Below are positions 1-24,796 of a stretch of DNA of 64,000 nucleotides, one piece after another. The stretch covers positions 1 through 64,000 of the IMG/VR virus record IMGVR_UViG_3300005336_000019; one strand, written 5' to 3'. Positions within the stretch are counted from its first letter, which is position 1; each line of letters opens with the position of its first letter. The stretch comes from a virus. Its lineage: Duplodnaviria > Caudoviricetes. A program made the position numbers and the translations under genes. The notes under the pieces were generated by a model. The model saw nothing but the letters and a program-made list of their open reading frames with translations. It searched no databases and was not told where the DNA came from.

Positions 1-2
1 GG

Positions 3-164
3 TGCGAGGTCGACACGGACGCGGCCGGGAACATCGTCCTGGTCAGGCGGTGCGCCGATCACAACCCGTGCGAGGGTCACGCCGGGGAGGACGCCGATCT
101 GATGAACCCGAACGTCGGGATGGGCGAGACGACCTACTGCGACGGGTCGTGCGTGCGCCGCTGA
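3..164 (+). CDS. 3' end of hypothetical phage protein (CEGH...YCDGSC motif), partial
   Basis: Frame 3 reads CEVDTDAAGNIV...CEGHAGED...MGETTYCDGSCVRR*; GC3-biased. Confidence 0.7.
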   Translation, partial: CEVDTDAAGNIVLVRRCADHNPCEGHAGEDADLMNPNVGMGETTYCDGSCVRR

Positions 165-237
165 CCATCCGCGTGCTTCGGGCGGGCATCCGGGAGACCG
201 GGTGCCCCACCGTGGACCACGGAAGGGAGATCGGCAA

Positions 238-771
238 GTGACCGACATTCAGATCAAGGACGAGAACACGTACCCGCTGAGCCTGTGGCGTGAGGCCCTG
301 GAGGTGGCAGAGGTGGCGGAGTTCTGCCCCACTGACACCCGGGAGTGGAACGGCGGAGAGCTGGGTGCCCTCGGAGCGTGGCTGTGTGACGAGCTGTACG
401 GCAAGCCCGTCAACCCGGACAACGTCCGGGAGGACACGGGTGAGATCGTCACGGAGAACGTCATCGACGGGGCGCTGGCCGTGCTCGACCAGGAGGACCG
501 GGAAACCCTCACTCCGGCCGACCTGCGCAAGGTGATCGAGTCCTACCGGGGCGAGACCTTCGACGACTTCGAAGAGCTGGCCCGGGACTACGCCGAGAAC
601 GACTACATCGGCCCGGACGACGAGAACCCGGCGCTCACGGAGTGGGAGGGGTTCAACTCCCCCGAGGACTTCGAACGCTGGTACACGAAGTACGGCACGG
701 GCGAGGGCGAGGTCTGCGGGGAGATCCGCGCGGGCGGGACCCTGATCTGGTTCGACAAGTTCAAGTGGTGA
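238..771 (+). CDS. ArdA-like antirestriction (acidic DNA-mimic) protein
   Basis: GTG after GGAAGGGAGA; very acidic; ESYRGETFDDFEELARDYAE resembles the ArdA Y.G.(Y/F)...E(D/E)(F/L)A motif. Confidence 0.6.
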   Translation: MTDIQIKDENTYPLSLWREALEVAEVAEFCPTDTREWNGGELGALGAWLCDELYGKPVNPDNVREDTGEIVTENVIDGALAVLDQEDRETLTPADLRKVIESYRGETFDDFEELARDYAENDYIGPDDENPALTEWEGFNSPEDFERWYTKYGTGEGEVCGEIRAGGTLIWFDKFKW

Positions 772-780
772 GGTGACGAG

Positions 781-1023
781 ATGCACGGATCGTATGACGA
801 CATGCGGGACATGCAGTACCGGGAGGAGAACCCGGGGTACGAGCGGGAGGTCGGCCTGACGGCCGGTGACCTGGAGGACTGCGACCCCGAGGTGGCCGTG
901 CTGGTGGCCGAGTCGTACGCCCGGGACAACGCCGCCCGCCGGGAGCAGAACCACCGGACCGAGGTCGCCGGTCTGCGGGCGCTGCTCGAAGAGCACGGGA
1001 TCGAGATCCCGGACCACCTGTGA
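781..1023 (+). CDS. hypothetical protein
   Basis: RBS GAGGTG, GC3 bias. Confidence 0.8.
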   Translation: MHGSYDDMRDMQYREENPGYEREVGLTAGDLEDCDPEVAVLVAESYARDNAARREQNHRTEVAGLRALLEEHGIEIPDHL

Positions 1024-1110
1024 TCACCGCGTGATTCAGGGGCGCACGGGAGGGGGCTCGTGCGCGCCTGTGTCCCACGGTGGGACGTGACGGACGGAAG
1101 GGACGAAGAC

Positions 1111-1668
1111 GTGATCAAGAAGCTGAAGAGGATCCTGGGGCTGGCCCTGGGGCCGTCGGAGTACGCGCCGAACCCGAGCGTGATCGGTTCGGTGGAGCAG
1201 TCGCCGAGCGGGAACGCCGTACTGCGCATCGGCAAGGCGACCGTGCCCGACGAGGGCCACCCGTCGTGGACGCAGACCGAGCACGTGGTGCTGAACGACG
1301 AAGAGCGGGACGAACTGATCGCCGTGCTCGACTCGCAGCGCGGATACCGCACGGTCAAGTGCGGTGACATCGTCGGCGTCGGCTCCATCGTGCTGGCCGT
1401 GCAGTACGCCCACGGCGGGGGCGGCGGAGAGCACCGCATCGGCACGGCCCTGGCGTGGACCGACCACAAGCGGGAGTACGTGGTCTACACCGTCGACCCG
1501 TACGGCGAGGTGAGCAACGGGACGTACACCTTCGACGAGCAGCGGGCGCTGAACGCGTACATCGCCCGGTCGAACGACCACCTGTTCCGTCACTTCAACG
1601 CCAAGCCCCCGGCCATCACGTACGGCCACGTCGCCGAGCGCGACGTGCTGAAGGGAGACAAGGCGTGA
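1111..1668 (+). CDS. hypothetical protein
   Basis: GTG after CGGAAGGGACGAAGA. Confidence 0.8.
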   Translation: MIKKLKRILGLALGPSEYAPNPSVIGSVEQSPSGNAVLRIGKATVPDEGHPSWTQTEHVVLNDEERDELIAVLDSQRGYRTVKCGDIVGVGSIVLAVQYAHGGGGGEHRIGTALAWTDHKREYVVYTVDPYGEVSNGTYTFDEQRALNAYIARSNDHLFRHFNAKPPAITYGHVAERDVLKGDKA

Positions 1669-1994
1669 ACCTGCCCGAGGACGTCGCCGAGGACTGGAAC
1701 GTGGTCATCACCGACCACATGCACTCTTCGGAGAGCCGGGACATCGTCAAGATCGAGAAGATCGACGCCGACGGTCTGATCCTGCGGCCGAAGCGCCCGT
1801 GGTCCAGTCAGGGGCGCAGCTTCCCGACCATGCGCCTGGACTGGGACGGCATGGAGATCGACGGGCTCACCGCCCGGCGGTACACCGTGCCGACCGGGAC
1901 GACGAGCCGCACCACGGCGGGCGTGCGATACGTCAGCCGCACGTACACCTTCCAGCCGCCCGCCGCATGGCTGAACGAGAAGAGGGGCCGATGA
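1665..1994 (+). CDS. hypothetical protein
   Basis: GTGA overlap, RBS AAGGGAGA. Confidence 0.8.
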   Translation: MNLPEDVAEDWNVVITDHMHSSESRDIVKIEKIDADGLILRPKRPWSSQGRSFPTMRLDWDGMEIDGLTARRYTVPTGTTSRTTAGVRYVSRTYTFQPPAAWLNEKRGR

Positions 1995-2263
1995 CCACGG
2001 GACGATACCCGGCGACGTCGTACGACAAGCTGAACGAGGACTGGGACGTGCGGGCGGAGCCGATCACACAGATCCGCCTCGCCTCGGAGCTGGCCCCGTG
2101 CGTGAGCGCCGGGATGGCCGTGCGCGGCGGCCCGCTGCGGGCGCAGCTTCCCGACGGTTCGAGCGGCCGGGAGATCGGCGCGGTGTCGATCGTGTGGAGT
2201 CAGACCGAGCAGGACGACGGCAGTCGTACGGTGCTCGGGTGGTACGAGTCCGGACGGAACTGA
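1991..2263 (+). CDS. hypothetical protein
   Basis: ATGA overlap, RBS GAGGGG. Confidence 0.75.
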   Translation: MTTGRYPATSYDKLNEDWDVRAEPITQIRLASELAPCVSAGMAVRGGPLRAQLPDGSSGREIGAVSIVWSQTEQDDGSRTVLGWYESGRN

Positions 2264-2294
2264 CGTCCGGGTGGCGGCCCGTGCACGGTGCCGC

Positions 2295-2311
2295 TAGTCT
2301 GGCCTAGGCCG
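2295..2311 (+). promoter_or_regulatory. -10 element TAGTCT followed by palindromic operator TGGCCTAGGCCG
   Basis: Member of the recurring TGRCCYRGGYCA family. Confidence 0.65.
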
Positions 2312-2396
2312 ACGGGTTCGGGAGCGGCCGGTCCTCCGGGATCGGCCGCTGACGTGCCGTGTCGGACGGTGAGTTGAATCGGAGAGGGAGAAGAAC

Positions 2397-2747
2397 ATGG
2401 GGACGTACGTCACCGACGGTGAGAACGAGATCGGCGTTGCCCTGACGGAGTCGTGGGCGGCCGTGTGGACCGTCGACACGGAGTACATCGAGGTCATCCG
2501 GCGCGACTTCTGGGACGAGCACGCCGACGAGATCAAGGCGGCGGCCGAGAAGGGCCGGGACTTCACCGACGAGAGCGGCAACAACGGCACCGTCGCGGTG
2601 ATCAGCACGAACGGCGACCTGGACGGCGAGGGGTTCCCGAAGAACTTCAACGACGCCTCGGAGTACGTCGCCGACGAGCTGTCCTCGTGGACCAGGTCGG
2701 ACGGCGGCGCGTACGAGCGGGCCACCATCGAGGGCTACAGCTACTGA
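2397..2747 (+). CDS. hypothetical acidic protein
   Basis: RBS CGGAGAGGGAGAAGA. Confidence 0.85.
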   Translation: MGTYVTDGENEIGVALTESWAAVWTVDTEYIEVIRRDFWDEHADEIKAAAEKGRDFTDESGNNGTVAVISTNGDLDGEGFPKNFNDASEYVADELSSWTRSDGGAYERATIEGYSY

Positions 2748-2760
2748 CGGGAGCGGCGGG

Positions 2761-3213
2761 ATGCAAGGGGAACTGATCCGGTACACGTGGGCTCCGAACC
2801 CCGGGATGGCCTGGGGCCTGGTCCACCTGTCGCAGGGGCGGGACGGCGACATGGTCGGCCCGTTCGTGTACGAGAGCTGGGAGGCGGCCGTGGCGGGCGA
2901 CAAGCGCGCCGGGGACACGCTGTACCGGGTCACCCGGCAGATTCGACCCGCCGACGAGAGCACCGGGACCCCGGATGCCGGGGCCTACGCCTTCGTGTGC
3001 AGTTCGGCCACGGAGTACACCATCTGGACCAAGCCCACGGTCAACGACGTGGGCGGGAGCGAGTACGACGGGGTGTGGTCCTTCCGGGACGCACCGGCCG
3101 CCGTGGAGCGCACCGGATGGGCGAACAAGGAGAACGCTCGGTACGAGGGACCGGATAACCCCCGGTTCGCAACGTTCCTGCTCACGTGGGACGTGACGGA
3201 AGAGGAGAAGTGA
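2761..3213 (+). CDS. hypothetical protein
   Basis: ORF tiling, GC3 bias. Confidence 0.8.
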   Translation: MQGELIRYTWAPNPGMAWGLVHLSQGRDGDMVGPFVYESWEAAVAGDKRAGDTLYRVTRQIRPADESTGTPDAGAYAFVCSSATEYTIWTKPTVNDVGGSEYDGVWSFRDAPAAVERTGWANKENARYEGPDNPRFATFLLTWDVTEEEK

Positions 3214-3214
3214 C

Positions 3215-3772
3215 ATGGCTCAGGTGCTGCGCGGAATCCAGATGTTCGACCGGGGCGACCGGGTCGAGATCGGGGACGGTGAACTGGCCACGGTCGAGCA
3301 CGACATGGGCGGCGAGGTCGTTCACGTGCACCCGGACGGGAGCCGGGGACGATACCCGCATGACGCCGTGCCGGTTGATCGGAACGGCGTGAAGCTGACC
3401 CGGCAGACCGAGAACGGCGAAGAGGTGCAGATCGAGATCTACTCGAACGGCTCCACGCACACCCTGTACGAGTGCTGCGGGTTCGACGAGTGCCGGGAGC
3501 GCATCCTGAACCTCGGTCTCGGCATCGTCCGGGACGAGGTGTTCGCCGGGGACCGGTTCGTGGTCGAGGTCGAGGGTGAGCCGGTCCGGATCACGGTCAA
3601 GCCGCTGGACGACCCGTCGTCCTGCATCTGGTGCTACGGGTGCGGCGACTTCCTCGCGCACGGCGAGGGCTGCGAGTGCGAGGACCGGGGGCACAACCCC
3701 GAGGCCGACCGGGAGCCGATGCGCCCCCTGGTCGTGGAGAACGGGCGACTGGAGCTGACGCCCTTCAACTGA
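3215..3772 (+). CDS. hypothetical Cys-rich protein
   Basis: RBS GAGGAG; CYGC and CEC motifs. Confidence 0.8.
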   Translation: MAQVLRGIQMFDRGDRVEIGDGELATVEHDMGGEVVHVHPDGSRGRYPHDAVPVDRNGVKLTRQTENGEEVQIEIYSNGSTHTLYECCGFDECRERILNLGLGIVRDEVFAGDRFVVEVEGEPVRITVKPLDDPSSCIWCYGCGDFLAHGEGCECEDRGHNPEADREPMRPLVVENGRLELTPFN

Positions 3773-3777
3773 GCGGA

Positions 3778-3837
3778 GACGCCCTAGGGTTCCCGGCCGA
3801 TGCCGGGGGCCCGGGAGTGTCGCTGATCGGGCGATGC
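3778..3837 (+). ncRNA. repeated structured intergenic RNA motif, copy A
   Basis: GACGC-CCTA-11 bp hairpin-GGGA-GTGTC, then an alternative hairpin. Confidence 0.65.
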
Positions 3838-3859
3838 CGGAACGGAGAAGGAGAACGGG

Positions 3860-4450
3860 ATGACCGAGATGGACGTGCTGGAGACGGCGGGCCGGTACCG
3901 GGTGCGTGTGGTTGTTCAGCAGGACTCGCAGGACTGCAACCCCCGCACCGAGCAGGACTGCAACCTGACGAACGTGATCACGCCGAAGGGTCAGCGGTAC
4001 ATCGACGTCGACAAGGACGGCGGCCCGCTGGCCGAGGGGTGGGAGCGGATCGAGGACCGGTACGTGGACGCCGTCCCGGTCTTCACCCGGTGGGCCCGGA
4101 TCTTCCACGGCGCCACCGTCGTCGAGCACCGGCCGCACGACGGCGCCTGGTCGCTGTGGTACGTGATGCCGGGGAAGCTGGCCGAGACGACGTGGCCCGC
4201 CGAGAAGGTCATCGAGTCGGAGCAGACCGAGTACCAGCGGTGGGCCGAGGGTGAGGTGTACGGGCACATCGTCGAGAAGGACGTGACCCGCATTCCCCGG
4301 GACGCCGAGGACCGCGACGACCCGGAGCTGGACGACGAGACCCGCGAGTGGGAGCACGTCGACTCATGCTGGGGTTACATCGGCCGGGAGTACGCCGAGG
4401 AGGCGGCCCGTGAGGCGTTCGCCCCGTACGCCGAGGAGGCCAAGGCGTGA
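3860..4450 (+). CDS. hypothetical phage protein (GEVYG...DSCWGY family)
   Basis: Motif WAEGEVYG...VDSCWGYIG; strong RBS. Confidence 0.85.
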   Translation: MTEMDVLETAGRYRVRVVVQQDSQDCNPRTEQDCNLTNVITPKGQRYIDVDKDGGPLAEGWERIEDRYVDAVPVFTRWARIFHGATVVEHRPHDGAWSLWYVMPGKLAETTWPAEKVIESEQTEYQRWAEGEVYGHIVEKDVTRIPRDAEDRDDPELDDETREWEHVDSCWGYIGREYAEEAAREAFAPYAEEAKA

Positions 4451-4755
4451 AGCGGGAGACGCGGGAGATCGCCCCGCTCACGGTGACCCGGGTCATCCGG
4501 GGCAGGCCGCCGGGCCACGTCGGGCCGTACTGGTTCGGCTTCGACATCAAGGTGAGCGGCCCGGCGGACGGGGCGTACGTGAGTGCCCGCGCTCGGGCCC
4601 TGGCGATGGCTGATGCGCAGGCCCTGTGTGCCGAGGTGAACGCTCCGGATCTGGTGCTCCAGTTCGAGCGGTCCGGTAACTGGGACGACCCCCGCACGTA
4701 CGAATGCACGATCAGCTTCGGTACCAGCCTTTCGGTGGAGGAGGACCCCCTGTGA
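4447..4755 (+). CDS. hypothetical protein
   Basis: GTGA overlap. Confidence 0.75.
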   Translation: MKRETREIAPLTVTRVIRGRPPGHVGPYWFGFDIKVSGPADGAYVSARARALAMADAQALCAEVNAPDLVLQFERSGNWDDPRTYECTISFGTSLSVEEDPL

Positions 4756-5075
4756 GCGGCGAGAACTGGACCCTGCCTGACGGTACGGAACTGGTCTACC
4801 AGGACGGCGACCACGTCACGATCGACATCGACCCCGGATCCCCGTCGGCCCTGCGCCTGCCGTTCCTGAGCGGCTACGTGCGGGGGTACGACGCCGTGAT
4901 CGAGGACGGCGGTCCGGCCCTGGTGGCGTACACGCTGTACAGCGTCGGGAACAACCCGCTGGTCGGCGTGAAGGAGGAACGGCTGAAGAAGACAGTCAGC
5001 CGGTTCGGGATCGGCCACGGCCGGGGTGCCCACGGTGACGGCAAGGCGTGCCACCTGTGCGGTGCGAACCTCTGA
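4752..5075 (+). CDS. hypothetical protein
   Basis: GTGA overlap, RBS GGAGGA. Confidence 0.8.
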   Translation: MSGENWTLPDGTELVYQDGDHVTIDIDPGSPSALRLPFLSGYVRGYDAVIEDGGPALVAYTLYSVGNNPLVGVKEERLKKTVSRFGIGHGRGAHGDGKACHLCGANL

Positions 5076-5081
5076 ACGGGA

Positions 5082-5141
5082 GGCGCCCTAGGGTGACCGG
5101 CTTCGGCCGGTCACCCGGGAGTGTCGCTCGAACGAGCGGAC
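5082..5141 (+). ncRNA. repeated structured intergenic RNA motif, copy B
   Basis: GGCGC-CCTA-GGGTGACCGGC(TTCG)GCCGGTCACCC-GGGA-GTGTC. Confidence 0.65.
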
Positions 5142-5154
5142 GGAGAGGGAGAAG

Positions 5155-5502
5155 ATGCTGACGAGTGAGGGCCTGAACAAGGGCCGTGCATGGGTGGCCA
5201 CGCCGGAGGAATACCTGGAGCGCGCGAAGCCGCACGTCCGGCAGCGCAACGAGCGGAGCATGCAGGGACACCGATTCGACATCATCATCGGTGACCTGTG
5301 CGGGAGCGGCGACTTCGCGTTCCCGTACCCCGGCCACTACGGGACCACGGCCCCGGTGACCGCCTTGCGCCGGGACCAGGCCGAGCACCTGACGGTCGAG
5401 CTGCTGAAGAAGCTGGCCCCGGGTGGTGAGCTGCCGACCGACGCGGCCGAGCTGCTGGACTTCGTGTCCAGCCTGATCCGCAGCGGTTCCGCTCCGGCCT
5501 GA
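5155..5502 (+). CDS. hypothetical protein
   Basis: RBS CGGAGAGGGAGAAG. Confidence 0.8.
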   Translation: MLTSEGLNKGRAWVATPEEYLERAKPHVRQRNERSMQGHRFDIIIGDLCGSGDFAFPYPGHYGTTAPVTALRRDQAEHLTVELLKKLAPGGELPTDAAELLDFVSSLIRSGSAPA

Positions 5503-5507
5503 CGGGA

Positions 5508-5566
5508 TGCGCCCCAGGGCAATCGGCTTCGGCCGGGGGCCCGAGAGCGCCGCTCGTGAGCGGTGT
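5508..5566 (+). ncRNA. repeated structured intergenic RNA motif, copy C
   Basis: TGCGC-CCCA-GGGCAATCGGC(TTCG)GCCGGGGGCCC-GAGA-GCGCC. Confidence 0.6.
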
Positions 5567-5718
5567 GAGCGGAAGGGAGGTGATCGTGATGAGCGAGGAC
5601 GAGTGGGAGAAGGCGGGCCGGGAGGCCGACGAGATCCTACGGAGGCTGAACGGCTGACCCGCCGGGCGACAGCACGATCCCGATGACAGAGAACTGACCC
5701 CGGAAGAGGGAGAAGAGC

Positions 5719-5844
5719 ATGACGCAGGAGAAGCCCGAGATGCCGGACATGATCAACGTTCCGGTTCCGGCCGACCAGCCGCCGCCGGAGGCCATCGCGG
5801 TCACCCCGGAGAACGCGGCGGCGATGGACGCCGACAAGAAGTAG
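5719..5844 (+). CDS. small hypothetical protein (41 aa, MTQEKPEMPD...)
   Basis: RBS CGGAAGAGGGAGAAGA; below the ORF-track cutoff. Confidence 0.7.
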   Translation: MTQEKPEMPDMINVPVPADQPPPEAIAVTPENAAAMDADKK

Positions 5845-5905
5845 CGGGCCGACGGCGCCGCTCGGGGTGGCCGGGAGACCGGCCGCCCCCTCGGAAGGGA
5901 GAGGC

Positions 5906-6274
5906 ATGCACGAACAGGACGTCTGGCGGGTGCGGTTCACCCGGCAGCACGGGGAAGCGTGGTCGCAGACCCTGGAAGGGCTGATCACCTTCCGGTACGG
6001 GGCCAGCGGTACATGGGCCGCACATGCGGCGCTGCTGCACTGGACCTGGATGTGCGGGGTTCCGGGTGCTGCCGAGAACTACCCCATGCGGTACCTCGTT
6101 GAGGCCATCCGCATGAAGGACGGCGAGGAGATCGTCGCCGGGAAGGCGACCGCCGTACGGGACTCCCTGGACGGGAAGTTCCTCAACGAGAACCAGGTGG
6201 ACATTCTTCAGTTCGACCGGGAGGGGACGCTGATCCGCACCCGGGAGAGCTGGACCGAGGCCGTCAGGCACTGA
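5906..6274 (+). CDS. hypothetical protein
   Basis: RBS GGAAGGGAGAGG. Confidence 0.8.
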   Translation: MHEQDVWRVRFTRQHGEAWSQTLEGLITFRYGASGTWAAHAALLHWTWMCGVPGAAENYPMRYLVEAIRMKDGEEIVAGKATAVRDSLDGKFLNENQVDILQFDREGTLIRTRESWTEAVRH

Positions 6275-6290
6275 GAGAAGGGAGTGGGAC

Positions 6291-6512
6291 GTGACCCTCA
6301 CGCTCACGAAGGAACGGGCGCCGGAGCTGAACGGAACGATCGAGATCCGCGCCGAATGGAACCACTCGTGCACGTCGCAGTGCTCGAACCCGTGCACCGT
6401 GAACCGGCTGGCCACGCCCGTCGTCACGGGCCGCATCCCGCAGCAGCCGGGGCCCCAGACGCCCCCGCCGCAGACGCCGAAGGTCCCGCAGCAGCCGGGC
6501 CCCCGGGACTGA
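6291..6512 (+). CDS. hypothetical protein, Pro/Gln-rich tail
   Basis: RBS AAGGGAG; PQQPGP occurs twice. Confidence 0.7.
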   Translation: MTLTLTKERAPELNGTIEIRAEWNHSCTSQCSNPCTVNRLATPVVTGRIPQQPGPQTPPPQTPKVPQQPGPRD

Positions 6513-6540
6513 GACCAGGACGACGGAGAGGCAGAAGATC

Positions 6541-6984
6541 ATGGGTGAGTGGACGCAGCACGGTCAGGTCTGGTCGGACGACGGCGACGTGGGCGGTGAC
6601 ACGCAGATCGGGAAGGCGGCCAGCGTCCGGTTCGTGAACCCGGACTACCCCGGCGCCCGGGTCACGGTGTACGCCTACGCCCACGCCCCCGAGCGGCCGA
6701 TCGAGGCGAAGGTCGGATCGATCGAGGTCCACATGGGCTACGGCCCGGACCTGGGCAACCTCGGGATCGAGTCGCAGGTCTGGTTCGAGATCGACGACGA
6801 CGCCGCCGGGGACGCCGACGAGTGGGACCCGACCTGGTCGGAGATCAAGCACGAGTCGCTGGACTCGTTCATCGGGCCCGGAACGGACGAGCAGCGCGTG
6901 GCCGTGGCCGAGGCGGCGGCACTCGCCTGGATCCGGTCGTACGACCCGAAGAAGTTCATCGACTGGGACGGCAAGCGGTTCTGA
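6541..6984 (+). CDS. hypothetical protein
   Basis: RBS, GC3 bias. Confidence 0.8.
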   Translation: MGEWTQHGQVWSDDGDVGGDTQIGKAASVRFVNPDYPGARVTVYAYAHAPERPIEAKVGSIEVHMGYGPDLGNLGIESQVWFEIDDDAAGDADEWDPTWSEIKHESLDSFIGPGTDEQRVAVAEAAALAWIRSYDPKKFIDWDGKRF

Positions 6985-7059
6985 GCCGGTGCGTTCGAGG
7001 CGCCGGGGGTCCACGGGTTCCCGGCGCCCAGTGCACACCGGACGGAAGGAGAGAGAAGC

Positions 7060-8031
7060 GTGAAGACGATCAGGGACGCCGAACAGACCACCCCGCAGCA
7101 GCTCAAGGGCATGACCCCGCCGGAGGTGGACGAGCTGTTCGCCGCCGTCTGGGACCGGCGGTACGAGCTGCTGGAGGACGTGTACGCCGCCTGGAACGAG
7201 GTGCACTACGCCGTCGGCGACCGCCGGGTCAGCACGCAGACGTGGCGCATGGGCCATGCCGAGGTGCAGGAGAAGGCGGCCGGGACCGAGCGGGGACGCA
7301 AGACGCTCGACCGGGTGAACCGGGCGAAGGGTGCAGTTGCCGAGCTGGACGGCACCGTACTGGTCAAGCTGGAGAACGAGTTCGGCCGCCGGGGCGGATG
7401 GTCCCGGGCCTACCTGGTCACCGACGGGCACGTGCACAGTTCGATGCACTGCTCTTCGTGCAACCGGGGAGAGTTCCCGACCCGGTTCTCCTGGATGATC
7501 GACTACTCCGGGAAGAGCATGGCCGAGATCGTCGAGGCCGCCGGGGAACGGGCCTGCACCATCTGCTACCCGGACGCACCGGTTGCCCGGCGGGACAAGG
7601 GCGAGAACGTGGCCGTGCCCAAGTCGGTGATGCTGACCTCCGAGGAGATCGAGCGGGCCGAGGCCAGGGAGGCGGAGGCCAAGCGCCGGGCGGAGAAGAA
7701 GGTCAAGGCCGCGCTGAACGCGATCACGCAGCCCGACGGCACGCCCCTGCGGGACGAGATGGGCCGCGACGGCAAGCAGAAGGGCTCGGTCGTGAAGACC
7801 TTGCGCACCGCCCGCTCCGAGCTGAAGCGGGAGTGCTGGTACGCATACGCCTGGGGCGACGACGACGGCGCCCACGAGCGGAACATCCAGCATCTGGGCC
7901 GGGCCGTGGCCTGGAAGGAGAACGGTTTGGAGGTCGGTACCGAACCGACCGCCGAGCAGATCGAAGCGGTGATCGTCCCGCTGCGGGACAAGGCCGTCAA
8001 GGAAGTCGACAAGGCCCGAGCCGAGGGCTGA
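7060..8031 (+). CDS. actinophage-type Zn-binding hypothetical protein (HVHSSMHCSSC...ACTICYPDAP)
   Basis: Recognisable motif; strong RBS. Confidence 0.85.
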   Translation: MKTIRDAEQTTPQQLKGMTPPEVDELFAAVWDRRYELLEDVYAAWNEVHYAVGDRRVSTQTWRMGHAEVQEKAAGTERGRKTLDRVNRAKGAVAELDGTVLVKLENEFGRRGGWSRAYLVTDGHVHSSMHCSSCNRGEFPTRFSWMIDYSGKSMAEIVEAAGERACTICYPDAPVARRDKGENVAVPKSVMLTSEEIERAEAREAEAKRRAEKKVKAALNAITQPDGTPLRDEMGRDGKQKGSVVKTLRTARSELKRECWYAYAWGDDDGAHERNIQHLGRAVAWKENGLEVGTEPTAEQIEAVIVPLRDKAVKEVDKARAEG

Positions 8032-8045
8032 AGGAGAGGGAGAAG

Positions 8046-8582
8046 ATGAACGAGACGACGGTACGGATCATCCACTGGATCTGGGGCGAGCCCCGGCTGG
8101 CCGACTTCCTGCGCGGCATCGCCGAGGGGGAGAAGATCCCGCCGCACGACGAGGCGTTCGAGTACGGCGACGACCAGCTCGCCTGCTGGATCTCCGACTT
8201 CGTCTTCCCGGAGGACCGCAGCCGGGGGATCAAGGCGTGGATCGACATCGACGGCGACGAGGCCCGGGTGACCGAGCTGTACGAGGCGCTGACCGAGGGC
8301 CGCAAGTCGCCCGCCGATCGGCTGAAGTGGCTCGACGAGATGGACATCGGCCTGATCCGGGACGCCCTGCTGGGACACAAGGGAGGGTCGGACGTCTACG
8401 TCCACTCCCTGGTCAAGCCGTACCACCCGAACAACATGTACCGGGTGCACGACTCCGGGACCGTGTACGAGCGGGGCTGGACGGCGGCCTCCGGCGCGTG
8501 GGGCCTGGCCGAGAAGGACCGTCAGGTCTGCACGAACCCGGCGGCCTCGCCGTGCGGGTGCAAGGTGGTCCAGCGTGGCTGA
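8046..8582 (+). CDS. hypothetical protein
   Basis: RBS GGAGAGGGAGAAG. Confidence 0.8.
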   Translation: MNETTVRIIHWIWGEPRLADFLRGIAEGEKIPPHDEAFEYGDDQLACWISDFVFPEDRSRGIKAWIDIDGDEARVTELYEALTEGRKSPADRLKWLDEMDIGLIRDALLGHKGGSDVYVHSLVKPYHPNNMYRVHDSGTVYERGWTAASGAWGLAEKDRQVCTNPAASPCGCKVVQRG

Positions 8583-8919
8583 GCTGAGCTGCACCTGTGA
8601 TCCCGGCGAATCGGTCGCCGGGACCCGGCAGGAGATCATCGAGCAGCGGCTGGCCCCGCTCTTCAGCCTCACAGTTCCCGAGGTTCACGCCCTGCTGGAT
8701 CTGCTGGACCGGGCGCTCGACCTCGCGCTCGACATCCCCGACGACGAGCGGAACCCGGAGGGCGGGGAGGCCGAGCGGCTGATGGCGCAGGAGTCCGGCC
8801 GCACCGAGGGCTGGATCAAGAACTTCCTGAGCGCATGGGAGTCAGTGTCCGACGCGCTGGACCGTGAACTGCACGAGAAGCACGGCCCGTGGGGCGGACT
8901 CTTCGGCAAACAGTCCTGA
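8575..8919 (+). CDS. hypothetical protein
   Basis: ORF tiling. Confidence 0.75.
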   Translation: MAELSCTCDPGESVAGTRQEIIEQRLAPLFSLTVPEVHALLDLLDRALDLALDIPDDERNPEGGEAERLMAQESGRTEGWIKNFLSAWESVSDALDRELHEKHGPWGGLFGKQS

Positions 8920-8924
8920 AGAAC

Positions 8925-8953
8925 TGGAACTTCACGGCCTAGGTCAGTAGGAT
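8925..8953 (+). promoter_or_regulatory. promoter TGGAAC-N17-TAGGAT with operator CGGCCTAGGTCA (8935-8946) in the spacer
   Basis: sigma70-like spacing plus palindrome. Confidence 0.65.
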
Positions 8954-8995
8954 TCGAGGGCCCCGGGAGAACCCCGGGGCCGGAGGAGGAACGGC

Positions 8996-9343
8996 ATGCA
9001 GCAGATGGACGAGTACCGGCGCACGGCCGAGTTTGTGGACGTGGTGGCCGGTGAGCCGGGCCAGGTGCACACGGTGTACCGCTTCCCGAACACGGAGGAG
9101 GGGCACGGCCGGGCGATGGAGTACCGCAACGCTTACAACGAGTCCCTGCGCGAAGCGATGAAGATTCCGAAGGCCGATCTGGAGCTGGAGCGGCCCGACT
9201 GGAACCAGCGCCGGGAGGAGTACGACCGGGCCGAGAAGGTCGAGCTGTACCGGTACAACCAGGCGGGCCTGTCCTACGTGCACCCGCCCAAGCTGATCGG
9301 CCCCGGTGACCCGATGCCGACCGACTACCCGCACGACTTCTGA
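8996..9343 (+). CDS. hypothetical protein
   Basis: RBS GGAGGAGG. Confidence 0.8.
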   Translation: MQQMDEYRRTAEFVDVVAGEPGQVHTVYRFPNTEEGHGRAMEYRNAYNESLREAMKIPKADLELERPDWNQRREEYDRAEKVELYRYNQAGLSYVHPPKLIGPGDPMPTDYPHDF

Positions 9344-9354
9344 GGAGATCCGGG

Positions 9355-9663
9355 ATGGCCGAGCTGACCCGCGACACCACGCACTACATCGTCCACTCCA
9401 CGGTCGTCGACCCGGGACCGAACTCCACCTTCGGTACATCGGCACCGATCTCCGGCCCGCACGCCCTGGAGCGGGCGGTCAAGGCCGCGCACGAGGAACT
9501 GAAGGGGCGGCGCCGGGCCTTCGTCACGGCCCGGGATGACGCTTCCCGGATCCTCGCCGTGATCCCGGTCGTGGACTACCCGGTGTTCGGTGACACCCAC
9601 GTCCCCGAGCACGCACAGGACGTCCTCCGGGGCCTGTTCGACGACCTGGACTGGACGGTCTGA
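9355..9663 (+). CDS. hypothetical protein
   Basis: RBS GAGGAG. Confidence 0.8.
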   Translation: MAELTRDTTHYIVHSTVVDPGPNSTFGTSAPISGPHALERAVKAAHEELKGRRRAFVTARDDASRILAVIPVVDYPVFGDTHVPEHAQDVLRGLFDDLDWTV

Positions 9664-9734
9664 CACGGACGAAACCGGGCCCCTGGGAAGGGCTCCCGGT
9701 AGGCGGAACAGGACCGCCCTGACGAGTCCCGTCA
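9661..9734 (+). ncRNA. type II hammerhead ribozyme HH1 (cleavage after GUA, 9701)
   Basis: GGAC-GAAA-stem III CCGGG/CCCGG-UA-stem I GGCGG/CCGCC-CUGACGA-GUCC; all core residues present. Confidence 0.92.
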
Positions 9735-9754
9735 GCACGGAAAGGGAGAAGAAC

Positions 9755-10108
9755 ATGCCGGTGAGCTACGCCTTCAAGAAGCCCGACGGGACCGATCAGG
9801 ACCCGGCCGCCGACCTGAGCCCGGTGCAGCAGGCGTTCCTGGTGCTGAACGAGATGGGAATCGGGATCCCCCGGCTCGACCGCTCCACGCTGGACGAGTT
9901 CGTGCGGCGTGCGGACCTGTTGCAGGCGTACGTCGGCATCGTGTGGCGCAACGGTGACGGAACGCCCCGGATCTTCACCCGGGCGGACTTCACCGAGCTG
10001 CTGCCCGGCGCCCGGACGAACTGGACGGCCCGCAGCAAGCGGGACTTCGACCAGGCCATGAAGAAGGAGATCGACGCGTACTGGAACAGCGTCGACAGTC
10101 GGAAGTGA
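9755..10108 (+). CDS. hypothetical protein (paralog of 18129-18464)
   Basis: Shared GI.R.D..T.DEFVRRADL...Y.G. Confidence 0.85.
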   Translation: MPVSYAFKKPDGTDQDPAADLSPVQQAFLVLNEMGIGIPRLDRSTLDEFVRRADLLQAYVGIVWRNGDGTPRIFTRADFTELLPGARTNWTARSKRDFDQAMKKEIDAYWNSVDSRK

Positions 10109-10117
10109 GGGACGCCT

Positions 10118-10420
10118 GTGGTGGCGGACGAGAAGGGTGACGAGTACGAGGAGACGGCGATCGGCTACGCCATCGGCGTCCTCACGTACATGCAGAACGG
10201 CGGGAAGCTGTCGAGCATCGAGGCGACCGCCTCGGAGATCGTCCGGCTGGCCGGTCGGGAGCTGGCGCAGAAGATGCCGGGCCCGGAGAAGGCCCGAGTG
10301 CTGATGGAGTCCGTCGAGGAGATGCGGCTCCGGCACAACAACCTGAACGCCGACGAGGTGTTCGAGGACATGATGGCGCAGGCGCGGAACGCCGGGCGCC
10401 TTCGGAGCGAGGGGAAGTAG
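10118..10420 (+). CDS. hypothetical protein
   Basis: ORF tiling. Confidence 0.8.
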   Translation: MVADEKGDEYEETAIGYAIGVLTYMQNGGKLSSIEATASEIVRLAGRELAQKMPGPEKARVLMESVEEMRLRHNNLNADEVFEDMMAQARNAGRLRSEGK

Positions 10421-10423
10421 AAC

Positions 10424-10870
10424 GTGGACAGCTTCAGGAACGTGGCCGCCGACGTGGTGACGGCGCACGAGAGCGGGACCTACCGGGCGGGCGCCAACCC
10501 GGCGGCCGATCACGTGGTCGAGGTGATCGGGAAGTACGGCAAGTGGGCGGTGCTCGCCGCCGCCGAGCTGATCAAGGATGACCCGGACACCTTCGAGGAC
10601 ATCCCGGCCGACAAGGTCATGGAGTTCATGGAGGAGAACTACCTGCACTCCGGGGCCACCGTCGGCCACGCGCTGGAGACCTACGCCAAGGACGCCGGGG
10701 ACCACACCGAGCTGGGCCGCCTGTACAACGCGCTCGACAAGGCGGGCGGCGTGGACCGCTTCGACTGGGGCTCGTACGCCGACGACGGCATGACCCCGAC
10801 GATCGGCCTGCACTTCGTCGTGATGCCGGTCCCGGCGGGCGAGTCCGGCACGTTCATCTTCGGGAGCTGA
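10424..10870 (+). CDS. possible ArdA-like C-terminal domain protein
   Basis: FMEENYL...RFDWGSYADD...FIFG resembles the ArdA C-terminal YIDYE.YARD...VF. Confidence 0.45.
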   Translation: MDSFRNVAADVVTAHESGTYRAGANPAADHVVEVIGKYGKWAVLAAAELIKDDPDTFEDIPADKVMEFMEENYLHSGATVGHALETYAKDAGDHTELGRLYNALDKAGGVDRFDWGSYADDGMTPTIGLHFVVMPVPAGESGTFIFGS

Positions 10871-10874
10871 TCAA

Positions 10875-11282
10875 GTGAACGACCTGCTGGACTGGTGGAC
10901 GGTTCCGGGTGCCCGGTGGGGCGTCCGGAACATGGACTTCAAGGTCGAGCTGAAGCGGGACGGGGTGGCCAGCCCGGTCCTGCTGGAGGGATACAGCGAG
11001 GAAGACCTGGCCGCGTTCGACGGCGGGGACTGGCAGTTCGTCATCGTCCGGGTGGTGCCCGTCGACCGGGACCTCACGGACCTGGTGAGCGCCGAACGCT
11101 TCATCCGGGGTGTGGACTGGGGCGACCTGCCGCAGGGCCGCATCGACCGGGAGGACGTGACCGACGCGCAGGTGAAGGAACTGGCCATCGAGTCGGTCCG
11201 GGCTCTGCGCGGCTTCGGGGTCACCGTCGACACGGAGCGGGACAGCGACCTCGCCATCCCGCGCATCACGGCGCCGTTCTGA
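10875..11282 (+). CDS. hypothetical protein
   Basis: ORF tiling. Confidence 0.8.
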   Translation: MNDLLDWWTVPGARWGVRNMDFKVELKRDGVASPVLLEGYSEEDLAAFDGGDWQFVIVRVVPVDRDLTDLVSAERFIRGVDWGDLPQGRIDREDVTDAQVKELAIESVRALRGFGVTVDTERDSDLAIPRITAPF

Positions 11283-11357
11283 ACGAGCCCTGCGGGGCCC
11301 TCGCTGAGGGCCCCGTGGAGTCCGGGTCAGCCCGGTGGAAACGGAAGGGAGAAGAGG

Positions 11358-11567
11358 ATGTTCACGCTGGTGCTGTGCTTCCCGAGGCAGGGGAATCGGC
11401 CTCGGTCGCAGAACTCGGTAACCGCCGGTCACGTGCCGCAGATCGGGTCCACGATCAACACGACGGGCCTGCACTCCGGTACATGGACGGTGCACCACGT
11501 CGGTCAGGACGCCGACGAGGCCACCCTGAGCAACACGGTCTACGTGTACCTGGAGGAGACGGACTGA
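11358..11567 (+). CDS. hypothetical protein
   Basis: RBS CGGAAGGGAGAAGAGG. Confidence 0.75.
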   Translation: MFTLVLCFPRQGNRPRSQNSVTAGHVPQIGSTINTTGLHSGTWTVHHVGQDADEATLSNTVYVYLEETD

Positions 11568-11911
11568 TGGGTCACCGGATCAAGGTCGAGCGGTACGGCG
11601 TCGATCACAGACTGGAGAGCAGCGAGGAGTTCAACGCACCCTCCTGGGAGGGCATCTGGCAGGCCGTCGAGGGCGAGATGGACCGCACCGGGAAAGAGCC
11701 GAGCGGGATGGAGGGCTGGGAGGAGGGCGGCTGCGTCCTGGACCCGGACCACGACTGCGAGGCGGACCCGGCCAAGTGCCAGGAGAACCTGAAGGAAGCG
11801 ATCCGGGACTGGATCAAGTCGGCCTGGGAGCACGACGAGCTGAAGACCGGCAGCTTCCACTTCGGCGGCGTGGACTGGTCGTCGATCACCTTCGGATGGG
11901 ACGGGGAGTAG
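11567..11911 (+). CDS. hypothetical protein
   Basis: TGATG overlap. Confidence 0.8.
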   Translation: MGHRIKVERYGVDHRLESSEEFNAPSWEGIWQAVEGEMDRTGKEPSGMEGWEEGGCVLDPDHDCEADPAKCQENLKEAIRDWIKSAWEHDELKTGSFHFGGVDWSSITFGWDGE

Positions 11912-11914
11912 GGC

Positions 11915-12235
11915 ATGGGCAACGAGGACAAGCTGCGCGTCAAGGAGGCGCCGACCCGGGTGGAAGGGATGCCCGTGATCAAGGGCAGCTTCCTGGGGTG
12001 GCAGCCGAACCTGGTTCTGGCGAAGACGCCGGGCTACTTCGCCTTCGTCATCACATACGACACCAGCCCCGAGCGCAACGGCGACCCGGACGCCTACAAC
12101 GTCCACCTGATGCGGGCCACGTCGCTCGACGGCCGGTGGCTGCGCATCGACAGCCGCCGGGGCCTGTTCCGGAGCGAGGCCGAGGCCGCGTTCAACGAGC
12201 ACGACAAGCTGGCCATCCGGCCGGGGAGGATCTGA
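11915..12235 (+). CDS. hypothetical protein
   Basis: RBS GGGGAG. Confidence 0.8.
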   Translation: MGNEDKLRVKEAPTRVEGMPVIKGSFLGWQPNLVLAKTPGYFAFVITYDTSPERNGDPDAYNVHLMRATSLDGRWLRIDSRRGLFRSEAEAAFNEHDKLAIRPGRI

Positions 12236-12878: not shown

Positions 12879-13214
12879 GTGGCCGAGCTGATCGACATCC
12901 CCAACGTCACCTGCGGGAACGGCCTGCACATGCAGGCGCCAACCCGGGAGCCGGTGTTCCACTTCACGCAGAACGACGGCTTCCACGGGATCATCTACCT
13001 GGACGCCGTGAAGGCGTGGGCACGGGCCATGCGGGAGGACGGGGTCCCCCTGCGGGAGATGGCTCACGACCTCTACGTCCTGCTGCCGGGCAGCCGGGAG
13101 CTGATCCGCTGCACGCTGGTCGTGGCGGACGGGGAGGACGGCCCGGAGATGGAGGTCGAGGCCCTGCGGCCGACGGCCCTGGAGTCGAACACCCTGTACA
13201 CCTGCAAGATCTGA
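12879..13214 (+). CDS. hypothetical protein
   Basis: RBS GAGGAG. Confidence 0.8.
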   Translation: MAELIDIPNVTCGNGLHMQAPTREPVFHFTQNDGFHGIIYLDAVKAWARAMREDGVPLREMAHDLYVLLPGSRELIRCTLVVADGEDGPEMEVEALRPTALESNTLYTCKI

Positions 13215-13287
13215 GCCGGTCGGCTTCCGGGGAGCACGGGCTTCGGTCCGTGCCCCTCGGTGGATCATCGGAACGGAGGAGAAACAG

Positions 13288-13527
13288 ATGCGGTATCGCG
13301 TGTGGACCTACCAGGACGGCGTCGCTCCGCCGGTCGTCCGGGATGCTTCCGGGCGACCGGCTTTCCCGGGCGGCCCCAACCCTGCGAAGGGGGCGCCGGG
13401 CCGGGCTTCCGCGAGGGAGGAGGCTGAAGGACTGTCGGCAGCCGTCGACAGAATCATGCAGCTCATGGAGGGCAACGGCCTGAGCGACGAGGCCGAGAAG
13501 GTCATCGTCCGGGGCAGGGCCACCTAG
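13288..13527 (+). CDS. hypothetical protein
   Basis: RBS GGAGGAG. Confidence 0.7.
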   Translation: MRYRVWTYQDGVAPPVVRDASGRPAFPGGPNPAKGAPGRASAREEAEGLSAAVDRIMQLMEGNGLSDEAEKVIVRGRAT

Positions 13528-14962: not shown

Positions 14963-15013
14963 CGAGGGGCCCGCTTGACGGCGGGCCCCTTCGCTGTACG
15001 ATGGCCTAGGTCA
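14963..15013 (+). promoter_or_regulatory. hairpin with -35 TTGACG as its loop, -10 TACGAT, operator TGGCCTAGGTCA (15002-15013)
   Basis: GAGGGGCCCGC-TTGACG-GCGGGCCCCTT; 16-nt spacer. Confidence 0.7.
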
Positions 15014-17667: not shown

Positions 17668-18045
17668 ATGGTGATGGTCAGCGATCCGGGCACGGTGCAG
17701 ATCCCGCGCTCGGGGACGAACGTCGGCCGGGTCGAGGAGTGGTCCGGCCACCCCGGTACCTGGGACGGCTGGGCCGACATCCCGGGGGCTCCGACCGAGG
17801 AGCTGGTCTGCAACGGCGGCAGCCGGGACTGGTGCCGGTACATGGTCACGAGGCGGTACCTGGACCACCTGCTCGACGAGCTGGGCGGCGCCACCCACTG
17901 GGGGCATGACCGGGACGCGGAGTTCACCGAGAAGTCCCGGATGGTCTCGCACTGCCTGGTCTTCATGAGCGAACTCCTGGCGGCGCACTACCAGGAGATC
18001 CGGCGGGACCGCATGCGGGTTCGCCGGGAGGTACAGCAGGGCTGA
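17668..18045 (+). CDS. hypothetical protein
   Basis: ORF tiling. Confidence 0.75.
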   Translation: MVMVSDPGTVQIPRSGTNVGRVEEWSGHPGTWDGWADIPGAPTEELVCNGGSRDWCRYMVTRRYLDHLLDELGGATHWGHDRDAEFTEKSRMVSHCLVFMSELLAAHYQEIRRDRMRVRREVQQG

Positions 18046-18128
18046 TCCGGCTTCGGCTCGGCGGCGCACGGGCTCTGGTCCGTGCGTCTGCCGTACTGCC
18101 GCCGGGCAGGGAATCGGAAGGGGAAGAG

Positions 18129-18464
18129 ATGCGAGCGTACTTCGAGACCAGCAACGGCGAGACGATCCCGCTGCCGGATCCAATGAGCCCCGAGCAGTCG
18201 GCCATCGTGTACCTCACGGGTGGAACCGGCATCCGCCGGATCGACGACGAGACGATCGACGAGTTCGTACGTCGGGCCGATCTGTACGACACGTACATCG
18301 GCGGGATCAACCTGCTGGAGATCGGGACCGGCAAGCGTGTTCCGATCACTCGCCAGGTCATCACCGAGGCGATGGCCGGTCACCCGGTGCTCTGGACGAA
18401 CGCTGGGCTCATGACCCCGGAATCGTTCGACCGCATGATCCGCGTCGCCAAGTCGGCGCTGTAG
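18129..18464 (+). CDS. hypothetical protein (paralog of 9755-10108)
   Basis: DEFVRRADL motif. Confidence 0.85.
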   Translation: MRAYFETSNGETIPLPDPMSPEQSAIVYLTGGTGIRRIDDETIDEFVRRADLYDTYIGGINLLEIGTGKRVPITRQVITEAMAGHPVLWTNAGLMTPESFDRMIRVAKSAL

Positions 18465-24779: not shown

Positions 24780-24796
24780 TACAGTGGCCTAGGTCA
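24780..24796 (+). promoter_or_regulatory. -10 TACAGT plus operator TGGCCTAGGTCA
   Basis: Palindrome family. Confidence 0.7.

Follow-up and report, generated by a model that had tools for sequence, protein, structure and literature searches.

In the early mRNA of the Bacillus phage SP82, intercistronic stem-loops are cut by the host RNase III, and what stabilises the product downstream of the cut is located at its new 5' end, namely a purine-rich ribosome-binding stretch and not a hairpin. RNase III requires little sequence specificity, and a helix of about 14-15 pairs is short for the enzyme. The RNase III sites of T7 early mRNA (R1.1 type) are repeated intercistronic hairpins of a polycistronic phage transcript, in which an upper and a lower stem flank an internal loop, and a cut in this loop gives rise to a 3' hairpin with a protective effect (general features in parts of PMC1540722). 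According to the same parts of that source, internal loops limit cutting by E. coli RNase III to one strand, leaving protective 3' hairpins, and the base pairs excluded from the proximal and distal boxes are rules for the E. coli enzyme, placed relative to a known cut site. In S. coelicolor, the rpsO-pnp hairpin is a mapped substrate of RNase III (AbsB); the enzyme prefers a G-C duplex and cuts both sides of the [4/4] internal loop of this intergenic hairpin, and RNase J is a 5'-3' exonuclease with a preference for 5'-monophosphate ends (sections of PMC10126417). The PeSL cassettes of T4-type phages are repeats between the stop codon and the Shine-Dalgarno sequence among small orphan early genes; they carry a strong sigma-70 promoter and a terminating stem-loop, and recombination between copies adds or removes genes (portions of PMC2839356).

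The window, i.e. the whole stretch of 64,000 nucleotides that was analysed (IMG/VR record IMGVR_UViG_3300005336_000019), is part of the genome of a cluster-BM-like Streptomyces phage with about 90% identity to JustBecause. In a full-text search of the literature no intergenic RNA motif was found reported for this phage cluster, and the genome announcement of Satis and JustBecause (PMC6687918) mentions none. Exactly three copies of the element are present in the window. Their parts are P0, P1 and P2 of a long hairpin, an internal loop, and a second hairpin, B:

3770..3837, + strand: copy 1, stop TGA at 3770-3772; 76.2 bits in the covariance model
3774-3776 with 3823-3825, + strand: copy 1, 5' and 3' strands of P0 of the long hairpin (predicted fold)
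3778-3782 with 3817-3821, + strand: copy 1, 5' and 3' strands of P1
3783-3786 opposite 3813-3816, + strand: copy 1, internal loop, CCTA opposite GGGA
3787-3797 with 3802-3812, + strand: copy 1, P2 with terminal loop 3798-3801
3817-3824 with 3830-3837, + strand: copy 1, hairpin B, GUGUCGCU/GGCGAUGC
3844..3862, + strand: purine-rich ribosome-binding site and ATG (3860) of a 196-aa gene after copy 1
5073..5141, + strand: copy 2, stop TGA at 5073-5075; 84.9 bits in the covariance model
5077-5080 with 5127-5130, + strand: copy 2, P0
5082-5086 with 5121-5125, + strand: copy 2, P1
5087-5090 opposite 5117-5120, + strand: copy 2, internal loop, CCTA opposite GGGA
5091-5101 with 5106-5116, + strand: copy 2, P2 with terminal loop TTCG 5102-5105
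inside 5121-5141, + strand: copy 2, hairpin B, stem interrupted by a single unpaired G
5142..5157, + strand: ribosome-binding site and ATG (5155) of a 115-aa gene after copy 2
5500..5566, + strand: copy 3, stop TGA at 5500-5502; 69.7 bits in the covariance model
5503-5506 with 5553-5556, + strand: copy 3, P0
5508-5512 with 5547-5551, + strand: copy 3, P1
5513-5516 opposite 5543-5546, + strand: copy 3, internal loop, CCCA opposite GAGA
5517-5527 with 5532-5542, + strand: copy 3, P2 with two A/G mismatches and terminal loop TTCG 5528-5531
5547-5554 with 5559-5566, + strand: copy 3, hairpin B, GCGCCGCU/AGCGGUGU
5571..5657, + strand: ribosome-binding site 5571-5580 and small conserved ORF, ending at 5657, after copy 3

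The preliminary description had placed a three-copy structured motif here; all three copies were recovered at their positions on the + strand with every feature it had listed, including the downstream re-pairing of the 3' strand of the lower stem in copies 1 and 3. The TGAs of copies 1, 2 and 3 are the in-frame stops of ORFs 3215-3772, 4752-5075 and 5155-5502, respectively, and the copies occupy the whole gap from stop codon to ribosome-binding site. In each copy, the 5' block (CG(G)GA after the stop TGA, then a 5-nt stem strand) is followed by CCYA, an 11-bp stem capped by a loop of 4 nt, GRGA, the strand complementary to the 5-nt one and GCU. The small ORF after copy 3 has candidate starts at GTG 5586 or ATG 5589, and its peptide is also found 3' of the element in JustBecause, Kela, Satis and IMG/VR contigs. 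A fourth copy lies about 11 kb upstream in related complete genomes, at a position equivalent to one preceding the start of this contig.

The three copies exceed chance: a gapped pattern of both conserved blocks gave three forward and no reverse matches in the 76.5-kb record, and the reversed-pattern control gave 0 and 0. Searched singly with mismatches, the short blocks were no commoner than in shuffles (20 compared with 24.7 expected, and 31 compared with 41.9 expected). The E values of the window copies in the covariance model ranged from 2e-19 to 1.5e-15, and their antisense strands scored 21.8-25 bits. The folding stability z of the 56-nt core was -2.97 for copy 1 and -4.07 for copy 2; the core of copy 3 (z -0.31) was no more stable than shuffled sequence.

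The search for homologs, which had been suggested as a check, resulted in 45 instances (42 unique) from 6 isolate phages, IMG/VR contigs and metagenome contigs. There were 2-5 copies per genome, in every case on the gene strand and always with the same orthologous genes downstream. The first viral scan listed 27 loci; judged by eye, 9 matches, distributed over 6 loci and 4 contigs, are real and the others are due to chance. A loose pattern matched at least 123 loci in metagenome contigs, and among the matches listed only 9 reached 30 bits or more. In genome contigs, at least 120 loci were matched, and all 120 listed scored 24.4 bits or less in the covariance model. The best score in three Streptomyces genomes was 25.9 bits; no copy of the element was found in the cellular genomes scored with the model, and a host origin was rejected on the scores of the three genomes and the listed genome-contig loci. 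The earlier statement that the motif could not be matched to the cores of known ribozymes was borne out, and no Rfam family of any kind was matched by the element: at gathering scores only tRNAs were detected in the 64 kb, and a permissive search of 3700-5700 (E up to 10) gave nothing better than E = 1, with a microRNA model. The element looks like an apparently new RNA family, structured and about 70 bases long, situated between presumably early genes of large Streptomyces phages.

The long hairpin is composed of the variable 11-bp top stem P2, the conserved 4x4 loop CCYA/GRGA and the lower stem P1/P0, with about 23 predicted pairs. Its pairing was counted in 36 sequences (35 distinct rows, 805 cells). 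The paired fraction was 92.2% of the cells compared with 82.1% in shuffles, none of the 500 shuffles matched the observed value, and slid controls gave 39-49%. Changes on both sides were detected in 13 of the 23 pairs. G-U pairs were retained: pair 11-59 was G-U in 31 and pair 15-54 was U-G in 29 of the 35 distinct rows. P2 is supported by compensatory changes. P1 and P0 are supported more weakly: P1 hardly varies in its 5' strand and its apparent support is mostly G-U wobble, pairs 9-61 and 3-67 are broken in 10 and 19 of the 35 rows, respectively, and the G-C to C-G swap of pair 4-66 in P0 may be a single event within one orthologous group. The helix remaining without P1 and P0 has about 14-15 pairs. 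In the upstream copies (c0) the top stem is longer, and the helix length is thus not constant.

Hairpin B begins exactly with the first base after the loop, re-uses the 3' strand of P1 and is followed, usually within 10 nt, by the downstream ribosome-binding site. MAFFT left the 3' strands out of register, and hairpin B was counted by a custom script anchored at the helix base. At least five consecutive pairs were present in 34 of the 42 unique instances; the mean of the shuffles was 12.9, their maximum was 23, and 0/500 reached 34. Hairpin B is supported by compensatory change, U-A being exchanged for C-G at positions 59 and 61. In Kela an insertion widens the loop of hairpin B and the stem is kept; the hybrid copy of this phage has G-C and U-A, and the similar hybrid of an IMG/VR contig has G-U and U-G. 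It had been proposed that a cut in GRGA would leave a new 5' hairpin, and that hairpin turned out to be the part best supported by compensatory changes.

The reading of variable stems around a conserved CCYA/GRGA loop, made from three copies, held for the larger set: the 4x4 loop is present in 42/42 unique instances, and in 33 of them the loop with its closing pairs is CCCUAG/CGGGAG. In the variants, opposite positions changed together, U15/G55 to C/A in 4 instances and C13/A57 to G/G in 2, and A57 is replaced by G in 3/42 unique instances. The terminal loops of both hairpins vary in sequence and length, and the conserved unpaired positions are few, about eight in the loop plus one or two bulges. 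To our knowledge, neither the K-turn nor other named loop motifs appear to fit this loop.

A sequence that is near-invariant precisely in the loop and the pairs closing it, with variable stems, would be expected if the element served as operator, with a sequence-specific RNA-binding protein or an endoribonuclease, from an early phage orphan or from the host, reading the loop and the 5' block and repressing, activating or cutting the flanking cistrons. The joint changes at opposite loop positions suggest a structured non-canonical helix as read by proteins, the merely 2-5 copies per genome always precede the same orthologous genes, and 54/57 ORFs near the copies have no Pfam match, leaving room for an RNA-binding protein. 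The near-invariant loop and the 5' block (GGAGNCGCC) also appear to exceed the needs of RNase III and would suit a sequence-specific protein better. However, no candidate protein was found, PHROGs and Pfam gave a function for none of the proteins neighbouring the copies, and an operator alone would leave hairpin B and the balance of the folds unexplained. We consider an operator rather unlikely.

A conserved internal loop between variable helices is also compatible with a new self-cleaving ribozyme cut in or near GRGA, which was one half of the preliminary dual reading; with no described family matched, its class would be new. This half was not supported. Only hairpins are present, with neither a junction nor a pseudoknot, both terminal loops are free to vary, the conserved unpaired positions are limited to those counted above, and A57 tolerates replacement by G, which makes a ribozyme barely credible. 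The other half, RNase III, found support as far as sequence goes, with a predicted helix of about 23 pairs, a conserved 4x4 loop, an intercistronic position and no room for a promoter.

All the strong matches were in the sense orientation (66-85 bits), and the antisense strands of the same instances scored 15-32 bits in the covariance model. Sense-only strong matches and conserved G-U pairs indicate that the element acts as sense-strand RNA, and it most likely punctuates polycistronic early transcripts. Features of the REP/attC type act as DNA and have a helix independent of the G-U pairs of one strand, which is not the pattern of these pairs and scores. The element might instead be no more than a DNA-level repeat for recombination or at gene boundaries, comparable to the T4-type promoter-stem-loop cassettes and without an RNA function of its own. 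In favour of this, Kela and one IMG/VR contig have no 115-aa gene (5155-5502) between copies 2 and 3. In its place they carry a hybrid element in which the 5' part of copy 2 is fused to the 3' part of copy 3 inside the shared CCGCTCG. In addition, public metagenome run assemblies break at the copies. Nevertheless, the strand asymmetry and the conserved sense-strand G-U pairs indicate RNA, P2 and hairpin B are kept by compensatory change that recombination homology does not need, and a promoter is absent, unlike in PeSLs; a purely DNA-level repeat is highly improbable. The hybrids without the intervening gene mean that the repeats also mark gene gain or loss, for which they provide homology as a side effect, in the variable arm of the phage. 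In this recombination between copies, giving insertion or deletion, and in its place among small orphan early genes the element is similar to PeSLs; it differs from them in having no promoter-like hexamers, no U-tract and a variable spacing of its blocks.

Several other candidates were rejected. For a promoter, the spacing of the flanking blocks varies (about 23-28 nt), the TAGGGT-like hexamer is not conserved (CAGGGC, TAGGCG or TAGGTT stands in its place in some copies), and 0 sigma-70-like sites were detected in a scan of 1-12000. In five phage records no sigma factor (sigma70_r2 domain) was found; T7-type polymerase was not found in the phage either, a weak negative since the control search was silent everywhere. 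An intrinsic terminator would agree with the G+C-rich hairpin, but there is no U-tract, and 0 terminator-like sites were detected in 1-12000; the 10 nt that follow hairpin B contain 0.7 T on average and 3 at most (42 instances). A small ORF across the element (ORF 5507-5686), like the start of JustBecause gene 304 inside hairpin B, was rejected as the changes are compensatory rather than codon-like, and at the equivalent place copy 1 lacks a start codon.

The explanation that we favour, tentatively and with less than even confidence, is a processing and stability site of the host RNase III type. During transcription of the genes, which are presumably early and co-transcribed, the element would first fold as a single long hairpin, irregular and with about 23 pairs (P0, P1, CCYA/GRGA, P2). 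The host RNase III would recognise the two-turn G+C-rich helix and cut at the conserved internal loop, and the upstream mRNA would be left with a terminal P2 hairpin as a block to 3' exonucleases. The released 3' strand of P1 would then refold with the next segment into hairpin B at the extreme 5' end of the downstream mRNA, where it could shield the 5'-monophosphate end from RNase J. The enzyme would be the host's because no phage-encoded RNase III was found in the five phage records. With 23 predicted pairs the helix is above the 20 bp of RNase III sites, the lowest 9 pairs (P1, P0) being weakly supported, and the internal loop CCYA/GRGA is the putative cut site.

Like the T7 sites, the element is a repeated intercistronic hairpin with an upper and a lower stem flanking an internal loop, where the cut is only proposed in our case. 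In contrast to T7, the host and phage group are different, the helix is G+C-rich and without sequence likeness, and the loop is symmetric, 4x4 and near-invariant. We know of no T7 site with an overlapping covarying second hairpin on the lower stem, which the element has. With rpsO-pnp the element shares the genus of the host, the intergenic position and the [4/4] loop, its own cut being again a proposal. The two are not homologous (25.9 bits or less in three Streptomyces genomes with the covariance model), and in the rpsO-pnp spacer of one Streptomyces genome no sequence resembling the element was seen by eye. Cleavage of rpsO-pnp destabilises pnp mRNA, whereas stabilisation is proposed for the element. 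The SP82 sites offer a parallel for the proposed stabilisation at a new 5' end, which here would come from hairpin B and not from a purine-rich stretch.

Hairpins that are not cut at all could also occupy such gaps, as 3' exonuclease barriers, weak U-less terminators or attenuators, or insulators against misfolding of cistrons. Unrelated long hairpins were found in the same stop-to-ribosome-binding-site slot in this arm of the genome, at 5842-5908, 6982-7062, 11280-11360, 13212-13290 and 18043-18131, therefore intergenic hairpins are a general habit of this phage, and the stems of the element are G+C-rich and stable. On the other hand, the element has no U-tract, whereas hairpins with T-rich tails were seen by eye elsewhere in the genome, near 21545-21580 and 25685-25725. 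A barrier also has no need of a conserved loop sequence, or of a second, overlapping hairpin preserved through compensatory changes, and passive hairpins are in our opinion unlikely.

The five bases common to P1 and hairpin B paired equally often with either partner, in 163/175 and 162/175 cells, respectively. In predicted energy, the long hairpin and the fold of P2 plus B differed by 1.1 kcal/mol on average, and the long hairpin had the lower value in 26/36. Such nearly isoenergetic folds might act as a translation-sensing switch: a ribosome at the upstream stop would cover the 5' strand of P0/P1, the long hairpin would flip to P2 plus B, and translation of the upstream gene would set how accessible the downstream ribosome-binding site is or how far the RNA is exposed to nucleases. 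In 45/45 instances the CGC in the 5' strand of P1 follows the end of the nearest stop triplet at a distance of 4-12 nt, and P0 therefore starts 0-5 nt past the stop. However, the ribosome-binding site is sequestered by neither predicted fold, the proximity of the stop codon may just reflect the tight gene packing of phages, and the evidence for the lower stem is weak; a switch of this kind is improbable. A two-state RNA device new to phages, in which a terminating ribosome or a dedicated phage protein at the CCYA/GRGA loop would choose the fold and hence whether the transcript is cut, is fairly improbable; if it existed, the lifetime of the early cistron mRNA would be coupled to translation of the upstream neighbour. 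It is even less likely that the loop forms the core of a new self-cleaving motif of very small size.

Next to nothing is known of the expression of the hundreds of orphan early genes in large actinophages, and the covariation-supported element offers a concrete, inexpensive way to test for mRNA processing during infection by Streptomyces phages. Should it prove to be cut, the element would be a compact natural substrate to define recognition by Streptomyces RNase III. Operon engineering in Streptomyces could benefit from a part with which cistrons are separated and stabilised.

In one RNA-library run, two short contigs from a close relative were detected, corresponding to 3937-4087 and 5516-5687, where the contig ends, including that at 5516, give no information on RNA ends and the RNA library may contain DNA. 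Among the sequence variants in DNA runs, those within the element were confined to the P2 loop of copy 1.

Each of the three copies of the element, a predicted two-hairpin RNA of about 70 nt (+ strand, 3770-3837, 5073-5141 and 5500-5566), was found to occupy the entire gap from an in-frame TGA to the next ribosome-binding site. The copies are real and in register, as the preliminary description had proposed. A gapped two-block pattern gave three forward and no reverse matches in the 76.5-kb record, and no matches with the reversed-pattern control. Short blocks searched singly with mismatches were no more frequent than expected by chance; the distinctive feature is the blocks in combination, not the single blocks. 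The full spacers of copies 1, 2 and 3 were predicted to fold with -43.9, -41.8 and -41.4 kcal/mol (z -2.4, -3.9 and -1.1, respectively), and the core of copy 3 alone gave a z of -0.31. Contigs from public metagenome runs end at copies 2 and 3 (5064-5114, 5510-5516), as expected for assembly at repeats. Unrelated long hairpins lie in the same stop-to-RBS slot at 5842-5908, 6982-7062, 11280-11360, 13212-13290 and 18043-18131; the one at 6982-7062 is also conserved in the Streptomyces phages JustBecause, Kela and Satis, though with changes.

The stop codon is followed by P0, an unpaired A, P1, the loop region and P2, which together form the long hairpin:

P0 (lower stem): alignment columns 3-6 paired with 64-67
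P1 (lower stem): columns 8-12 (G-N-C-G-C) paired with 58-62 (G-Y-G-Y-C)
4x4 region: CCYA (13-16) facing GRGA (54-57)
P2 (top stem): 11 pairs and a loop of at least 4 bases

The pairs of the long helix were counted in 36 sequences (35 distinct rows), leaving out six unique instances found later. The cells were paired in 92.2% of cases compared with 82.1% in shuffles, none of 500 shuffles reached 92.2%, and sliding the partner lowered the pairing to 39-49%. Two-sided changes were detected in 13 of the 23 pairs, and the pairing and covariation signal comes mostly from P2. As the 5' strand of P1 is almost invariant, P1 varies mainly between G-U and G-C, and its pair 9-61 is not formed in 10 of 35 rows. 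Within P0, G-C is swapped for C-G at pair 4-66 in seven rows, which may represent one event, and 19 of 35 rows lack pair 3-67.

The internal loop with its closing pairs reads CCCUAG/CGGGAG in 33 of 42 unique instances; the variants were CCCCAG/CGAGAG (n=4), CGCUAG/CGGGGG (n=2), CCCCAG/CGGGAG (n=2) and CCCUAG/CGGGGG (n=1). When no bulges are assumed, the double changes affect facing positions (15 with 55, 13 with 57), and that at 15/55 puts C-A in place of a U-G opposition, an exchange by which a wobble pair is commonly replaced like for like. Therefore, the 4x4 loop described earlier is at least as good a fit as the structure drawn by folding programs, with three pairs and two bulged A's. The retention of CTAG in the loop is notable since CTAG is strongly avoided across the window (24 seen, about 195 expected; approximately eight-fold depleted). 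It is chiefly on account of this near-invariant loop sequence that recognition by a sequence-specific protein is considered a strong rival to the processing reading discussed below. Among the 24 window CTAGs, 13 lie within CCTAGG. Seven CCTAGG occur in intergenic spacers in the near-palindrome G-R-CCTAGG-Y-C (2301-2310, 8936-8945, 15003-15012, 21591-21600, 24786-24795, 25733-25742, 39165-39174), often directly after a -10-like hexamer or directly before a ribosome-binding site, and may be an operator or transcript-start motif.

The second hairpin, B, begins at G58, the first base past the loop, and shares with the long hairpin the 3' strand of P1, as well as that of P0 in longer forms. The proposed ability of the lower-stem 3' strand to pair downstream was borne out: with a custom script anchored at G58 (ungapped), at least five consecutive pairs were counted in 34 of 42 unique instances, while shuffling of the downstream bases gave 12.9 such instances on average and at most 23, with 0 of 500 shuffles reaching 34. 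The remaining eight were mostly B helices broken by one bulge or mismatch. One of these eight, from a 260-kb phage, was unclear and was excluded from the pair table. Of the 175 cells formed by bases 58-62 in 35 instances, 163 showed a pair with the B partner and 162 a pair with the P1 partner. Covariation with these bases was observed only for the B partner (positions 59 and 61 carry U-A, U-G or C-G), and such swaps occur also inside orthologous groups, e.g. GUGCC/GGCAC and GUGUC/GACAC in upstream copies. Predicted energies of the two alternatives, the long hairpin and P2 plus B, lay on average 1.1 kcal/mol apart, and the long hairpin was lower in 26 of 36. A conserved gene of about 22 aa lies 3' of copy 3 (5589-5657, +; 6373-6474 in JustBecause), and its annotated start in JustBecause, a GTG within hairpin B, was probably placed too far upstream.

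Nineteen sequences were used to build a covariance model, whose matches lay on the gene strand only in all phage records with copies. Strong plus weaker copies numbered 3 in this record, 3 + 1 in JustBecause, 2 + 1 in Kela, 2 + 1 and one doubtful in Satis, 4 + 1 in the 260-kb IMG/VR phage, and 3 + 1, 2 + 1 and 3 + 1 in three further IMG/VR records. Copy 2 matched by blastn only six cluster-BM isolates. Model scoring of pattern-scan matches added at least nine instances from metagenomes and seven viral ones, resulting in at least 45 instances and 42 unique sequences, many of them orthologues, so that the counts overstate independent events. No convincing instance from a cellular genome was among the matches listed. 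In relatives (L049, L048, L047, L079, L080), a more divergent copy, c0, precedes copy 1 by about 11 kb, at a position beyond the start of this contig. Its top stem is longer, its hairpin B is short with a GCCC loop, and in most genomes another hairpin follows, with a T-rich tail and the look of a genuine terminator.

The window covers the first 64 kb of the 76.5-kb IMG/VR fragment. Among 50,697 phage records, its region 3200-6200 matched six Streptomyces phages and no others, the best being JustBecause (90% covered, 89.8% identical) and the second Kela. Cluster BM was founded on JustBecause and Satis, two lytic-looking siphoviruses of about 185 kb, whose genome announcement makes no mention of intergenic motifs (PMC6687918). 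All genes of the first 26 kb are small and on the + strand; 54 of its 57 ORFs lacked a Pfam match at a threshold of E 0.01, and a Macro-domain protein (22421-22882, +, E 4e-12) was the sole confident domain. From this gene make-up and the place near a genome end, we infer an early-gene arm. Eleven tRNA genes are clustered at 50299-52997 (- strand).

The gene of 115 aa that separates copies 2 and 3 (5155-5502) is absent from Kela and from one IMG/VR contig (L340). Both carry in its place a single copy-2/copy-3 hybrid element (5891-5975 in Kela), joined within the shared CCGCTCG, with G-U and U-G at the base of B in the IMG/VR hybrid versus G-C and U-A in Kela. Similar modular shuffling is described for T4-type PeSLs which, as characterized there (PMC2839356), have a promoter, whereas this element does not.

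The element was suggested earlier to be a new ribozyme or an RNase III site. The ribozyme proposal was not sustained: the Rfam search gave no match, and ribozyme architecture is absent. A terminator was rejected because no U-tract follows the element; by eye, hairpins with T-rich tails are present elsewhere in the same genome. A promoter was also rejected, as the spacing of the conserved blocks varies (about 23-28 nt) and no sigma-70-like site was detected in 1-12000. The strand asymmetry and G-U pairs argue against a DNA-level repeat alone. The element resembles phage RNase III sites in its two stems with a loop between, intercistronic place and lack of a promoter, and also one mapped Streptomyces RNase III substrate as outlined in a review (PMC10126417). 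Hairpin B, which would sit as a cap at the new 5' end, is second only to P2 among the helices in conservation. Due to these likenesses and the conserved hairpin B, a processing and stability site is tentatively favoured, with the element as a candidate RNase III site by geometry. No recognizable RNase III was found in five phage records, so a host enzyme would have to act.
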